Assembly: GCA_018063165.1 (NCBI GenBank)
Contig: JAGOQU010000003.1
Span: 19,268-83,267 of the forward strand
Reading direction: 5' to 3'
Source: Minisyncoccota bacterium
GTDB lineage: Bacteria; Patescibacteriota; Minisyncoccia; Phycocordibacterales; UBA5272
DNA length: 64,000 nt
Under the pieces are notes generated by a model. That model saw nothing but the letters and a program-made list of their open reading frames with translations. It searched no databases and had not been told where the DNA came from. A program made the position numbers and the translations under genes. Each line of letters opens with the position of its first letter. Position 1 is the first letter of the stretch. Below are positions 5,215 through 56,055 of this stretch, piece by piece.

Positions 5215-6081
5215 ATGCATTCACTTACTGACGTTGAAGTTCGTGCACTTACTCTTCGTGCTGAAGATATACGAGAAAGTATCATAAAGATGCTTGTAGA
5301 GGCGGGTAGTGGTCACACTGCAGGGTCTCTTGGTATGGCAGATGTTTTTACTGCTCTTTATTTTCGTATTATTAATCATAATCCACGACATCCTGAATGG
5401 ATACAGCGTGACAGAGTGATTCTTTCTAATGGTCATATAGCGCCAGTATTGTATGCAACCATGGCTCATGCTGGATATTTTTCTATATCAGAATTAAAGA
5501 CACTTCGAAGATTCGGTTCACGATTACAGGGTCATCCACACAAAGAAATGTTGCCTGGTATTGAGTCTTCGTCTGGTCCTTTAGGATCAGGACTTTCACA
5601 AGCTATTGGAATGGCACTTATGGATAAATTAGAAAATCATAAACCTGATAGATATTTTTATTGTTTAATGGGTGATGGTGAAATAAATGAAGGTCAGGTA
5701 TGGGAATCTCTGTTGCTTTTACATAAATATAAACTCAACAAGGTTATTTCTATTATTGATCGAAACACAATACAGATTGATGGGTATACCGAAGATGTGC
5801 TCCCACTTGAATCTTTAAAAGATAAACTCGAAGCTTTTAATTTTCATGTGATAGAAATTGATGGACATGATTTTAAAGATATTGTTCGTGCTGTTGGTAT
5901 GGCAAAGAGTACATTAGATAGAGCTACTGTTATTATTGCGCACACTATACCTGGTAAGGGGGTTACCGCATTTGAGGGTGATTATAGATGGCATGGTAAG
6001 GCTCCAAGTATAGAAGAAGGAAAAGTAGCCCTCAAAGAACTTCGTTCATTACGAGGAAAGGTTTCTTACGGAGAAATATAA
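5215..6081 (+). CDS. tkt: transketolase, N-terminal (TPP-binding) subunit
   Basis: GHTAGSLGMADVF and GDGEINEGQVWE motifs of the transketolase N-terminal section. 288 aa, i.e. a split tkt. Confidence 0.85.
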   Translation: MHSLTDVEVRALTLRAEDIRESIIKMLVEAGSGHTAGSLGMADVFTALYFRIINHNPRHPEWIQRDRVILSNGHIAPVLYATMAHAGYFSISELKTLRRFGSRLQGHPHKEMLPGIESSSGPLGSGLSQAIGMALMDKLENHKPDRYFYCLMGDGEINEGQVWESLLLLHKYKLNKVISIIDRNTIQIDGYTEDVLPLESLKDKLEAFNFHVIEIDGHDFKDIVRAVGMAKSTLDRATVIIAHTIPGKGVTAFEGDYRWHGKAPSIEEGKVALKELRSLRGKVSYGEI

Positions 6082-6089
6082 TATATAGT

Positions 6090-7076
6090 ATGATACGAGA
6101 AACATTATTTACAGCAAAAGAAGAAGAAAAAACAACACGAGAAGGCTTTGGTGAAGGTCTTCTTCATGCAGGAGAAAATGATACTCATGTTGTTGCGCTA
6201 TGTGCTGATCTCACAGATAGTGTACGCATGGATCTTTTCCGTGCTAAATTCCCAGCTCGTTTTTTTGAAATGGGGATAACTGAACAAGCTATGTCTGGTC
6301 TTGCGAGTGGAATGGCAGCATTTGGATACATTCCTTTTATGGCAAGTTATGCTGCTTTTTCTCCTGGAAGAAATTGGGAGCAGATACGTACTACAATTGC
6401 ATATAACGATGTGCCAGTAAAAATTATTGGAGCACATACCGGACTATCAGCTGGACCAGATGGTGCTACACATCAAGCGATAGAAGACATAGCACTTATG
6501 CGTATGATCCCTAATATGCAAGTATTTGTACCATGTGATGCAACAGAAGCAAGGGTGATCACAGAACACGTAGCTACTACGAAATACCCTTCGTATATTC
6601 GTTTAACACGTGAAAAAACTCCTCTTATGTTGCCAGATACATATGTATGGAATCATGGTAAGCCGTATGTTATGTTTATTCCAAAACAAAAAAATGGTGG
6701 TAGTTTTATGTACAATATAGGCGTTATTGGATGTGGCCCAATTATTTATCAAGCACTCAAGGCTGCTAAAGAATTAGAAAAAGAGGGTATAGGTGTAACT
6801 GTTGTTAATATGCCACAAATAAAACCACTTGATACTACATTTCTTCTTCGTTTTGTAAAAGATATGAGAGCTCTTGTAACCATAGAAGAGCATCAATCTG
6901 CAGGAGGTATGGGTAGTGCTGTGGCAGAATTTTTGAGTGAACATCATCCAATAAAAATTGCACGTATTGGTATAGATGATAGATTTGGGCAAAGTGGCAA
7001 GCTTCAAGAACTTTATGAAGAATACGGTCTTACATCGTCGCATATACAAGAAGTTATAAAACGAGTAATGATATAA
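6090..7076 (+). CDS. tkt: transketolase, C-terminal (pyrimidine-binding + C-terminal domain) subunit
   Basis: FEMGITEQAMSGLASGMA and downstream domains of the transketolase C-half. Immediately follows the N-terminal subunit. Confidence 0.85.
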   Translation: MIRETLFTAKEEEKTTREGFGEGLLHAGENDTHVVALCADLTDSVRMDLFRAKFPARFFEMGITEQAMSGLASGMAAFGYIPFMASYAAFSPGRNWEQIRTTIAYNDVPVKIIGAHTGLSAGPDGATHQAIEDIALMRMIPNMQVFVPCDATEARVITEHVATTKYPSYIRLTREKTPLMLPDTYVWNHGKPYVMFIPKQKNGGSFMYNIGVIGCGPIIYQALKAAKELEKEGIGVTVVNMPQIKPLDTTFLLRFVKDMRALVTIEEHQSAGGMGSAVAEFLSEHHPIKIARIGIDDRFGQSGKLQELYEEYGLTSSHIQEVIKRVMI

Positions 7077-44919: not shown

Positions 44920-44992
44920 CCTCCGATAGTTCAAATGGATAGAACAGAAGCGTCCTAAGCTTTTAATGTGGGTTCAATTCCTGCTCGGGGGA
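44920..44992 (+). tRNA. tRNA-Arg (anticodon CCT), probable
   Basis: Cloverleaf folded by hand: acceptor cctccga/tcggggg, D-arm gttc-aaatggata-gaac, anticodon stem gaagc/gcttt with loop gtCCTaa, T-arm gtggg-ttcaatt-cctgc. It has a 4-nt variable loop and several G-U pairs, and no encoded CCA. Confidence 0.5.
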
Positions 44993-45032
44993 CAAATTAA
45001 GTATGTGTGATATTATTATAGTATTTATTACT

Positions 45033-52999: not shown

Positions 53000-53042
53000 C
53001 TAATAGTGGATGGTCGGTAGCTGATAGTTTTAAATAATAAAT

Positions 53043-53087
53043 ACAAACACAGAGCGACCTTCGGTCGCTCTGTGTTTGTGTGTATAA
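53043..53087 (+). terminator. strong long-stem terminator after the SET gene
   Basis: acaaacacagagcgacc-ttcg-ggtcgctctgtgtttgt. Confidence 0.7.
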
Positions 53088-53282
53088 AATTACAGAAAAA
53101 TATTTTTATAACTTTATACAATGTATAAAATTTATTTTTATAAAATTTGTAAAAATAAATGTGTATAATTATTTTTTTAACAAAAAGTATATTTTTTATT
53201 TCTTTTTTATTTTTATATGATGTAAGTAGAGTGTGTTTAAAAAATATATTGATATATAAGGATAATATAATGATATATAAAG

Positions 53283-53316
53283 TGCATTTATGCAAGTGCT
53301 TTGCATTTGCATAAAT
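53283..53316. promoter_or_regulatory. nested dyad symmetry element containing ATGCAA-gtgct-TTGCAT (same 6-5-6 dyad as at 20480) within an AT-rich promoter region
   Basis: Seen directly: tgcatttATGCAAgtgctTTGCATttgcataaat. The outer arms atttatgcaa / ttgcataaat are also complementary. Confidence 0.45.
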
Positions 53317-53472
53317 AGAAAAAATAAAAATAAAAGTTATCCACAGAATTAACGTACAAAACTATTGTGTACTGATGTACGAATGTCATACTTAGTATAT
53401 CGAGAGTAATGGTCGCGGTCGTGATCATAAAAATTACAAACACTCTCTGATTTCTATAATAAATATATATTT

Positions 53473-55218: not shown

Positions 55219-55247
55219 TTGACATAAATACATTTATGATGTATACT
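55219..55247 (+). promoter_or_regulatory. canonical sigma70-type promoter (TTGACA-17-TATACT) driving the GC-rich gene
   Basis: Seen directly: ttgaca taaatacatttatgatg tatact. Confidence 0.55.
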
Positions 55248-55275
55248 ATATATAGTTCATTGATGCTATCTTAAA

Positions 55276-55340
55276 AAGTAGTCATAGCCAAAAGATTTTA
55301 TGTGTGTATTTTTTATGAGATTTTCTGGCTATGACTACTT
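55276..55340 (+). promoter_or_regulatory. 15-bp perfect inverted repeat (AAGTAGTCATAGCCA ... TGGCTATGACTACTT) with ~35-nt AT-rich loop in the 5' UTR of the GC-rich gene
   Basis: Seen directly. Lies between the promoter and the RBS, and no T-run follows it. Confidence 0.5.
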
Positions 55341-55379
55341 ACAGTTCTAGCTCCTTTACTCACGGACAGTGAGAAGAAA

Positions 55380-56000
55380 ATGAGCAAACAGCTCAAGGAG
55401 AAGATAATGAAATACGGCGAACTCACACTCGGACAAGTGGAAGCGATTGTAAACAAGCTCGGCGGTATGGAAGGTGTAAAGCGTTTCTTATCTGGTGAGC
55501 TACCTGTTTCTGCAAAGACAAAGGTCTGGAAGACGTGGAAAACCATTAAGCTCGGCACTGGTCTGAAGTCAGCTGATGACTTCCGCAAGGAGGTTGTGGA
55601 GGCAGGGATGAAGATTGGCGACTGGGCAAATGACATCCTCGGCAAGCCCGCCTTCACGGCGACAACCAGCGAAACGGAAGTTGAACTGGTCGTTGCCTCC
55701 GTGGCTGAACTCGGCTTCAAGGATGGTGCAACTCGCAAAGACATCTACGTTCGTGCCCAAGAGCTCGGACTGGACCTATGCCCACCCGAAGTCGGTCCGC
55801 AACTGCGTTTGCAGTACACGGACCAGCCCAAAGGTGAATGGCTTGTCATTGCGATGGAGCCCATCACTGACTCGGATGGCGACCTCAACCTGTTCCACGT
55901 TGGACACGGTGACGGTGTACGCTGGCTCGACGCTGACTACGGCGACCCTGGCTATTTCTGGCGCGGTGGCGGCCGTTTCGTCTTCCTCCGTCGGAAGTGA
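55380..56000 (+). CDS. unknown protein encoded in a compositionally foreign (about 50% GC) island; probable horizontally acquired cargo gene
   Basis: 206-aa ORF with strong G/C third-position bias (ctcggc, aagctc, gacatc). Other frames and the opposite strand give only low-complexity S/T/P/A ORFs typical of antisense GC-rich DNA. Own promoter, RBS-like gagaag, and terminator. Product not recognised. Confidence 0.6.
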   Translation: MSKQLKEKIMKYGELTLGQVEAIVNKLGGMEGVKRFLSGELPVSAKTKVWKTWKTIKLGTGLKSADDFRKEVVEAGMKIGDWANDILGKPAFTATTSETEVELVVASVAELGFKDGATRKDIYVRAQELGLDLCPPEVGPQLRLQYTDQPKGEWLVIAMEPITDSDGDLNLFHVGHGDGVRWLDADYGDPGYFWRGGGRFVFLRRK

Positions 56001-56022
56001 TGTTGGTAAAATGACTGTATCC

Positions 56023-56055
56023 AAAGGGTTCGCGTAAGCGAACCCTTTTTCTTTT
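56023..56055 (+). terminator. rho-independent terminator after the GC-rich gene
   Basis: aaagggttcgc-gtaa-gcgaaccctttttctttt. Confidence 0.7.

Follow-up and report, generated by a model that had tools for sequence, protein, structure and literature searches.

Diversity-generating retroelements (DGRs) are unusually common in Patescibacteria, where their targets are unannotated and their role is not known (Roux et al., 2021, PMC8144416). One DGR clade, termed 'clade 2', is restricted to this group and has targets without recognisable domains (Roux et al., 2021, PMC8144416), and a set of DGRs with unclassified variable regions (VRs) has been described in the candidate phyla radiation (CPR; Wu et al., 2018, PMC5758913). 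Here we discuss a gene of this kind, which lies in a stretch of 64,000 nucleotides from a Minisyncoccota bacterium (assembly GCA_018063165.1, contig JAGOQU010000003.1; hereafter the window, meaning the whole stretch) and forms part of a GC-rich island at 55219-56055 in AT-rich surroundings. An initial annotation, made from the letters of the window, had taken this island for a recently acquired foreign cargo gene. We find that it is in essence an element of a known type, a Patescibacteria DGR variable-protein gene, and that window 55219-56055 very probably represents a complete expression module for a variable protein of the Patescibacteria type.

A DGR variable-protein gene and its relatives

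The identity of the gene derives from its relatives. In the closest ones found on long contigs, loci L001 (87%) and L002 (80%), the homologous gene is situated directly 5' of an opposite-strand bAvd gene and an RVT_1 reverse transcriptase (RT), and the Avd protein of the relatives matches the NCBIfam model DivGenRetAVD (2e-16). A second copy of the final 131 nt of the gene lies 492 nt downstream, and the mismatches between both copies fall on adenines of the downstream one (16/16 in L001, 10/12 in L002). Since mismatches confined to template adenines are the signature of a DGR, the downstream copy constitutes the template repeat (TR) and the 3' end of the gene the VR.

The same layout recurs among the 79 genome loci of the family that were compared. 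RT is present in 35 and Avd in 38 of them, always in the order target, spacer, TR, avd (minus strand) and RT, and the TR is found 385-537 nt past the VR start in all loci with RT or Avd save L041 and L073. The mismatches of such linked loci lie nearly exclusively at adenines (17/18, 13/13, 14/14 and 20/20 in examples); no TR was detected in those of the 79 loci that carry neither RT nor Avd, and stand-alone copies make up about 40% of the family loci with enough flanking sequence. The TR of the L001 type (ACTGACTCGGATGGCAACCTCAACC...CGTCGCAA, 131 nt with ~36 adenines) is identical (131/131) in L001, L213, L214, L215, L218, L219 and L220 and one base off in L210 and L211; six populations have a TR that is identical or one base apart. 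In these populations each VR differs by a set of 16-22 substitutions of its own, which fall almost exclusively on template adenines. An invariant TR combined with private, adenine-site changes in the VR points to active diversification in those populations.

The window VR differs from the L001-type TR, which comes from other organisms, at 20 positions, 18 of which are TR adenines; the two remaining changes are C>T at 55915 and C>G at 55993. As shown by this substitution pattern, the window VR appears to have been produced by adenine-specific copying of an L001-type template. When stand-alone VRs are compared with known TRs, the window and L011 have 2 non-adenine differences and the others 9-56, most cis pairs having 0-3; so few non-adenine differences argue that the window VR was written from an L001-type template recently. 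The VR 3' segment at 55973-55996 is identical to the TR in all linked relatives, which have CGTCGCAA, and reads CGTCGGAA in the window. By analogy with other DGRs (PMC5758913), this segment may serve in the initiation of mutagenic homing (IMH). The parts of the module are as follows.

55219..55247, + strand: sigma-70-type promoter TTGACA-17-TATACT, 11/12 consensus match; left border of the conserved module
55276..55340, + strand: leader hairpin P1, with a sequence-conserved outer stem (GTAGTCATAGCCAAAAG / CTTTTCTGGCTATGACTAC) and a variable inner stem and loop
55352..55366, + strand: tentative pseudoknot, UCC 55352-55354 with GGA 55364-55366 in the P2 loop
55359..55373, + strand: leader hairpin P2 (CTCAC GGACA GTGAG), indicated by covariation and also present in the minimum-free-energy (MFE) fold
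55381..55395, + strand: leader hairpin P3 (TGAGC AAACA GCTCA), indicated by covariation; abuts the Shine-Dalgarno (SD) sequence on its 5' side
55395..55400, + strand: SD sequence AAGGAG, recognised by sequence, 6 nt 5' of the start codon; a GGAG-type motif aligns across leaders
55407..56000, + strand: gene of the 197-aa DGR variable (target) protein, modelled as a C-type-lectin-like domain preceded by a short helical region at the N-terminus
55866..55996, + strand: VR, last 131 nt of the open reading frame (ORF), with 20 differences from the L001 TR, 18 at TR adenines
55973..55996, + strand: invariant VR 3' end, an IMH-like segment with one non-adenine change, C>G at 55993
56023..56055, + strand: intrinsic terminator-like hairpin and T-run (11-bp stem, GTAA loop, -18 kcal/mol)

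Nucleotide similarity to L001 (88%), L011 (86%) and L002 (83%) extends from the -35 hexamer (55219) to the stop codon (55998-56001). The flanks of the module have no similarity to these three loci, except for 74 nt of L002 (window 44927-45000, 76% identical to L002 3321-3393, the site of an Rfam match to transfer RNA, tRNA), which probably represent a tRNA gene. The 'self-contained unit' of the initial annotation therefore holds more strongly than proposed, as it is now bounded on both sides by comparison with other genomes. The promoter at 55219-55247 was correctly recognised, as was the GC-hairpin terminator at 56023..56055, whose 11-bp stem (56023-56048, six GC pairs) starts 22 nt past the stop codon and is followed by TTCTTTTG in a pattern match. 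The inverted repeat that had been reported in the leader is perfect over its outer 15 bp (26-nt arms at 55276-55301 and 55315-55340, 85% complementary), but the leader comprises three covarying helices rather than one repeat. The proposed start at ATG 55380 (206 aa) had to be abandoned together with its 'gagaag' ribosome-binding site: both lie inside the conserved leader hairpin P3, and homologue lengths, mostly 194-199 aa, fit ATG 55407, which is most likely the true start (197 aa, MKYGEL..., with AAGGAG at 55395-55400 upstream). The genomic context of the module differs from genome to genome, which makes its relocation within Patescibacteria plausible.

The protein had been described as lacking a recognisable family, and indeed no match was obtained in Pfam, PHROGs, NCBIfam or PADLOC, nor did the family profile match any PDB sequence (0 matches); the window protein, from a metagenome-assembled genome of 'Candidatus Pacebacteria/Paceibacterota', is annotated as hypothetical. 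A family search returned 1,471 protein clusters at E ≤ 1e-3, the best 120 of which are 63-100% identical, almost all 194-206 aa long and without a Pfam domain, and the few named clusters among these 120 come from Parcubacteria or Patescibacteria. In a scan of one genome per species, relatives were found in 364 species genomes, nearly all of them Patescibacteria. The family alignment consists of a strongly conserved body and of C-terminal ~43-45 residues that vary at discrete positions, with a third-position A share of 2-3% across the family VRs. The target protein yields a confident AlphaFold2 (AF2) model with a recognised C-type lectin (CLec)/formylglycine-generating enzyme (FGE) fold; in this model, the hypervariable residues are displayed on a C-terminal C-type lectin-like fold. 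Inspection of the target sequence, with no predictor run, revealed neither a signal peptide nor a transmembrane segment, which agrees with the description of clade 2 by Roux et al. (PMC8144416).

Some members of the family (L041, L064 and L069, also L019, L037 and L078) have their contigs assigned to Bryobacterales, Limisphaerales, Verrucomicrobiota or Gammaproteobacteria. Of the contigs binned outside Patescibacteria, three have flanks of ~0.60 GC, and either mis-binning or a genuine wider spread would account for their assignment. L037 holds two paralogous targets in one locus (216-824 and ~6001-6588) with no RT nearby; their 3' ends are identical at 94/110 positions, and 3/16 differences fall at adenine positions.

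Downstream of the stop codon, the linked relatives have a CTTGG-repeat region that folds into an extended hairpin, then a terminator and then the TR. The window has a plain terminator in place of this hairpin region, and the entire segment that follows the stop in the relatives (spacer, TR, avd, RT and a Bro-N gene) is absent from it, the terminator and secA being found instead. No TR copy, RT or Avd was detected in the 64-kb window (blastn-short for the TR; tblastn with the L001 RT and Avd), the L001 RT producing nothing better than E = 4 in tblastn.

One way to read this absence is that the window gene is a remote but active target whose VR is rewritten in trans by a cognate DGR with an L001-type TR, which would lie beyond the 64-kb window in the same genome. 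Its 2 non-adenine VR differences fall inside the 0-3 range of most genuine cis pairs, its promoter, leader and ORF are all intact, and certain genomes carry linked and stand-alone copies together. In addition, the GC hairpin with its 4-nt loop, 22 nt past the stop, is like the homing-aiding inverted repeat of other DGRs (PMC5758913, PMC3240598). However, in the three same-genome pairs that were tested (n=3) the stand-alone VR did not fit the resident TR: two had 10-12 non-adenine mismatches to it and the third was unalignable, and the resident TR was therefore rejected as a donor, these stand-alone VRs not being currently serviced. The window also lacks the CTTGG-repeat hairpin region after its stop codon and carries a substitution in the otherwise invariant VR 3' end, and the only truly remote targets reported by Wu et al. 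belong to a different DGR lineage (PMC5758913). Clusters of RT with 88% or more identity to the L001 RT occur on contigs from other samples only, an absence that is weak evidence given the incompleteness of metagenome-assembled genomes (MAGs). We consider diversification from a distance to be a serious contender, with a probability somewhat below even; that the window target module was recently separated from its DGR, with its specificity now frozen, appears just a little likelier true than false.

Further features of the linked loci deserve mention. The spacer of L001 contains 8 short YTT(T)GG repeats (906-975; 0.95 expected), which form an extended imperfect hairpin that starts 5-20 nt past the VR. 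Most DGR-linked loci (e.g., L013, L023, L027, L044, L060, L070) have CTTGG-type repeats in the ~50 nt that follow the stop, and such repeats also follow some stand-alone genes (L030, L034, L072, L075, L083, L088). By analogy, the CTTGG-repeat hairpin may be this lineage's version of the homing-aiding inverted repeat of DGRs. A 282-aa Bro-N-domain protein is encoded 3' of the RT in L001 (2865-3713), L002 (10551-11399), L210 (8581-9429) and L214 (5049-5897); its role as a general cassette part or regulator was considered and rejected, as it is limited to the subclade nearest the window (1/30 full-RT loci). In L210 (7532-8549) and L211 (4549-5566) the RT beside P0006, an 86%-identical relative, is split into ORFs of 170 aa and 134 aa and is probably inactivated. 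The same P0006 target and VR occur on 5 contigs of different samples, consistent with a stalled DGR, and an IS3-family transposase is located directly 5' of this target gene.

Composition and origin of the target genes

The GC-rich island is real and a single case in the window. ORF 55407-56000 has a GC content of 0.557, compared to 0.335 +/- 0.036 (max 0.439, z = 6.1) in same-size windows elsewhere, and its GC at third codon positions (GC3) is 0.619, compared to 0.190 +/- 0.021 (max 0.255) in the 28 other long ORFs of the window. Thus the local GC excursion and the G/C-ending codons described in the initial annotation are both confirmed, as is the increase toward the 3' half (0.59, compared to 0.52 in the 5' half). 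The neighbours are secA on the downstream side and, on the upstream side, an HMA/DsbD-like gene along with a 142-aa ORF, and, as had been stated, no integrase, transposase or tRNA was seen beside the gene. The segment 5' of the HMA/DsbD-like gene (window 53000-53400) has a GC content of 0.14-0.22 and only spurious ORFs.

An abrupt change of composition at both sides could also arise from an assembly chimera in which a high-GC fragment was joined into an AT-rich contig, a doubt that had been raised along with the island itself. Both junctions, however, recur in a second assembly, GCA_017992935.1, next to the same genes and with 100% identity across 10.9 kb, and in dozens of genomes conservation extends over the AT-rich promoter and leader as well as the GC-rich ORF, which leaves this explanation with next to no probability.

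The extreme GC and GC3 contrast and the sharp borders would suit the foreign cargo gene of the initial annotation, possibly from a phage, plasmid or high-GC donor; the contrast would then be an unameliorated donor signature. Foreign cargo would also be in keeping with flanks that differ in every genome, with the IS3 transposase beside one relative and with the distant homologues found on plasmids of Lactococcus, Bacillus and Bradyrhizobium. Yet the same excess is found throughout the family: target genes average 0.565 GC as opposed to 0.425 in their flanks and are richer than these in 73/79 loci, the target ORF staying at about 0.57 in hosts that range from 0.31 to 0.60. The remainder of the system is AT-rich and host-like, with 0.33 GC in the leader of the window module and, in the same loci, 0.380 in RT and 0.384 in Avd, whose flanks have 0.435. 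Target and RT are equally diverged (amino-acid identity 0.627 and 0.622, respectively, in 406 pairs), and four-fold-site identity is 0.385 vs 0.30 in random expectation, which means that synonymous sites are near saturation. This parallel divergence, together with the near-saturated synonymous sites, indicates that the family is old and its composition maintained; a recent spread of the family is rejected by the same values. In addition, composition is alike in DGR-linked (n=39) and stand-alone (n=29) copies.

Database searches likewise argue against a phage or plasmid donor. The phage genomes searched (50,697) contain no match and 2.9 million viral contigs a single distant relative (44% identity), while the plasmid homologues are restricted to the core (residues 49-197) and only 29-46% identical. 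Those examined carry a hypothetical annotation, and a DGR is lacking from the Lactococcus plasmid. The occurrence of the relatives nearly always in Patescibacteria marks the family as native to this lineage. Altogether, a GC excess that is family-wide, confined to the ORF and maintained does not point to a foreign donor. Nor does the locus resemble a genomic island, since atypical GC is confined to the ORF in every host and the borders are without mobility genes or tRNA. We therefore regard foreign cargo as very unlikely. What does stand from the initial annotation is a discrete, compositionally aberrant unit with its own promoter and terminator and without a described protein family. The scaffold extends beyond Patescibacteria, but the close family is not derived from phage or plasmid sources. 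Among the distant homologues, that of the Lactococcus lactis plasmid pUL021F (L223 2368-2886) matches the conserved core, and a Bradyrhizobium japonicum plasmid (L224 4722-5477 and 9031-9786) carries two paralogues with a hydrophobic N-terminus beside an IS110 transposase.

The excess seems to be written into the coding sequence of the targets. Outside the VR, their four-fold sites comprise A 0.13, C 0.43, G 0.20 and T 0.24, those of RT being even. Spill-over of adenine mutagenesis from the VR was rejected as a cause, as there is no gradient of A depletion (four-fold A 0.11-0.13 over residues 26-152); the similar composition of linked and stand-alone copies argues against it as well. Leader-bearing genes outside the family, which are introduced below, also have a higher GC than their surroundings (0.509 vs 0.396, higher in 19/23). 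From these sequence comparisons, a coding composition rich in GC and C3 and poor in A3 belongs to the target genes themselves and is maintained in them.

GC islands of AT-rich genomes are often RNA genes (ribosomal RNA, tRNA), and so the island might be a structured non-coding RNA, with an ORF that is an artefact of scarce stop codons in GC-rich DNA. Several long overlapping ORFs in other frames and a protein without a family match would suit this idea. The reading frame, however, is intact across 1,471 clusters of 194-206 aa, and the amino acids are conserved although synonymous sites are near-saturated. The codon-position pattern of the ORF (GC1 0.64, GC2 0.41, GC3 0.62), VR codons that are nearly without third-position A, a confident AF2 model with a recognisable fold and the lack of an Rfam match further oppose a non-coding origin, which is hardly credible.

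A structured leader shared by DGR targets

The leader displays a constant order: promoter, conserved initial transcribed stretch, P1, P2, P3, SD sequence and MKY start codon. P1 is a long hairpin whose outer arms are conserved and whose inner stem covaries, P2 and P3 are 5-bp hairpins, and the stretch AGTTCWTTGA is conserved among leaders at the 5' end. The statistics refer to 61 distinct leaders, aligned by fitting to the leader covariance model R1, a procedure that favours structure. Paired cells amount to 94.7% vs 81.1% in shuffles (P1 96%, P3 93%), and the covariation score of 0.401 exceeds that of shuffles (0.165; none of 500 attains it) and of slid partners (0.04-0.11). Both sides have changed in 21/32 pairs (P1 11/22, P2 5/5, P3 5/5). 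On an independent MAFFT alignment, RNAalifold recovered P1 and P3, with 14/26 pairs compensated, and missed P2 owing to subfamily register differences that are resolved in the covariance-model alignment. Conserved wobble pairs in P1 (G.U in 55/61, U.G in 51/61) tie the hairpin to the sense strand, a point in favour of RNA. A folding energy of -52.4 kcal/mol (z = -6.4) was obtained for the window leader, with P2 in the MFE fold, in which the 5'-proximal UUCAU (55256-55260) also pairs with the start region AUGAA (55407-55411). Rfam yielded only noise on the leader, namely miRNA-precursor hairpins far below the gathering threshold; it matched nothing in window 54-57 kb and only tRNAs in 11 related loci. 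Judged by conservation and covariation, the target gene is preceded by a structured 5' leader.

A pseudoknot of the P2 loop is proposed tentatively. The complement of the loop triplet occurs at a fixed distance upstream in 19/19 type-A leaders (states CCC/GGG, TCC/GGA and CTC/GAG), and an upstream CCC accompanies 24/27 of the GGG loops as compared to 2/14 of the other loops. In the window, CUCCU 55351-55355 is able to pair with the P2 loop or alternatively with the SD sequence, the latter pairing being that of the MFE fold. A general anti-SD role of the pyrimidine tract was considered and rejected, because a perfect CUCCU:AGGAG match exists only in the window's subclade and the others have CCCC.

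The covariance model places a P1-type leader upstream of most family members, and a promoter with a match of at least 9/12 lies 28-45 nt 5' of P1 in 50/58 distinct leaders, 29 of which reach at least 11/12. A P1-core scan of metagenome contigs revealed at least 120 sites, and a pattern scan of viral contigs for P1 gave 0 matches. Among the matches listed, 111 downstream ORFs include 65 of this family and at least 46 outside it; 34/46 of these listed non-family ORFs belong to one BLAST-linked group, and they are mostly ~140-240 aa long, many with W/Y/G/D-rich C-termini. At least 10 of the 46 listed non-family genes have a TR 414-494 nt downstream, and in the best-aligned of these pairs adenines make up most of the mismatches, for example 12/13, 12/14, 6/7 and 17/20. 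As far as these sequences indicate, the leader is a hallmark of this DGR lineage's targets, independent of protein family or of an adjacent DGR. In L008 (8775-10682; contig shared with L016), the target is followed by two further genes, each with its own P1-type leader, which encode proteins of 288 aa and 213 aa with 34% mutual identity and W/R/G-rich C-termini, unrelated to the target family; the locus has the appearance of a small array of leader-bearing genes.

Such recurrence of P1 before consecutive genes (L008, L056, L073, L110, L117) would also suit a DNA recombination site, attC-like or a transposon end, that would render the module a mobile cassette. A hairpin that is imperfect, conserved in its outer arms and variable at its centre, the sharp module borders in variable contexts and the fact that attC sites may resemble 5'-untranslated region (UTR) RNA motifs (Weinberg et al., 2017, PMC5737381) are compatible with this proposal. 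Conversely, the module border is at the promoter -35, ~57 nt 5' of P1 and not inside it, a near-consensus promoter 28-45 nt upstream implies that P1 is transcribed, and P2, P3, the SD sequence and the start codon always come after P1. No tyrosine recombinase is linked in the loci examined and the Rfam attC model does not match. A recombination site is thus unlikely, and we retain the interpretation of P1 as part of an RNA leader.

With the leader as an RNA element of a DGR target gene, the following sequence of events can be envisaged. The near-consensus promoter would drive an mRNA of about 750-800 nt, whose leader of ~150 nt would fold into P1, P2 (probably pseudoknotted with the pyrimidine tract just 5') and P3 abutting the SD sequence. 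The 197-aa product would be a soluble protein, and its C-terminal C-type-lectin-like domain would show ~20 hypervariable residues that are encoded by the 131-nt VR. In sister genomes, the adjacent RT/Avd would copy the invariant TR ~490 nt downstream while erring at adenines, and the copy would then replace the VR, whereas the window copy would have detached recently from its DGR with a frozen binding specificity. The leader may control translation or mRNA fate of the variable proteins. In the window sequence, the pseudoknot and the anti-SD:SD helix are mutually exclusive and would act as a switch.

We speculate that P1-P2(pseudoknot)-P3 could represent a new class of cis-regulatory RNA that gates the translation of DGR variable proteins in Patescibacteria, that the leader together with selection-maintained recoding could be an annotation-free signature of the targets, and that the stand-alone modules could form a mobile reservoir of frozen specificities. 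As a whole this proposal is tentative, and its likelihood lies appreciably short of even. If it is true, the signal for the leader switch would be a small molecule, or a factor of the DGR or the host, and the signature of leader and GC-rich recoding would include stand-alone copies that are invisible to current DGR finders. The stand-alone modules would then be a store of 'frozen' specificities moving between genomes as promoter-leader-ORF units.

Several considerations weigh against this interpretation of module and leader. As TR, RT and Avd are lacking from the window, the DGR membership of this copy is deduced from homology and from the adenine pattern relative to the TR of other organisms. 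The pair counts stem from the alignment fitted to the covariance model, independent compensatory events for the pseudoknot number two or three, and only the window's subclade has the anti-SD pairing. Finally, the function of the leader is proposed from its conservation only.

Comparison with described systems

These results bear on a protein family that has been called hypothetical and that, with 1,471 clusters and members in 364 species genomes, is now assignable to DGR variable proteins with a predicted C-type-lectin-like fold. Because ~40% of its members stand alone, surveys that demand a VR beside an RT undercount targets and miss copies that are possibly frozen. The shared, covarying leader provides a first hint of common regulation of DGR variable-protein expression, and the host-independent GC of ~0.55 with its C-rich third position, a feature of the targets but not of RT/Avd, offers a simple handle for detection. 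It is also a warning that a compositional island need not mean horizontal transfer. For experiments on the protein scaffold, the distant homologues that cultivable Lactococcus and Bradyrhizobium carry on plasmids could be of use. In the literature searched, three aspects are not described: stand-alone copies with VRs that appear freshly written, a structured leader RNA common to targets of several families, and a maintained C3-rich coding that is specific to targets.

The closest described systems are the DGRs of Patescibacteria and CPR. Like the relatives discussed here, these are cellular, encode Avd and have small targets without transmembrane or known domains, with the VR at the target 3' end and adenine-specific TR/VR mismatches. 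The window differs from them in that it holds the target module alone, with no TR, Avd or RT in 64 kb, and neither of the two surveys (PMC8144416, PMC5758913) mentions a conserved leader RNA or a target-specific GC excess.

A comparison with variable proteins of the C-type-lectin fold, Mtd of the Bordetella phage BPP-1 (1yu0) and TvpA of Treponema denticola (2y3c), reveals a common principle, as the model places the VR residues in a C-terminal CLec/FGE-like domain and the variable codons likewise shun third-position A. In contrast to Mtd and TvpA, the target protein is much smaller (197 aa), has no signal peptide, lipobox or phage-tail context on inspection and shares no detectable sequence similarity with them by the search of PDB sequences with the family profile.

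The window gene also recalls the remote DGR targets of Treponema, Legionella and others (Wu et al., 2018), with which it shares a VR gene far from an RT and a signature of adenine substitutions. Known remote targets have their cognate TR in the same genome and match it at every non-adenine position. The cognate TR of the window, on the contrary, has been seen in other organisms only, and same-genome stand-alone VRs of this family have drifted from the resident TR.

With regard to the leader, a compact H-type pseudoknot just 5' of the SD sequence would be reminiscent of the preQ1-I and SAM-II riboswitches, a functional analogy only. Unlike these, the leader has no Rfam sequence or covariance-model match and possesses P1 as an extra long, sequence-conserved hairpin, and the genes behind it give no metabolic hint, so that a protein-binding leader is equally possible. 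Conserved RNA structures at DGR loci have precedents in the motifs RT-1 to RT-19 of Weinberg et al. (2017, PMC5737381), of which RT-10 sits in the TR-RT spacer of BPP-1; the Rfam RT motifs had no match in the DGR loci examined here. Those motifs are located beside RT genes and probably act in cDNA priming, whereas the present leader occupies the 5' UTR of the target and is kept even where no RT is nearby.

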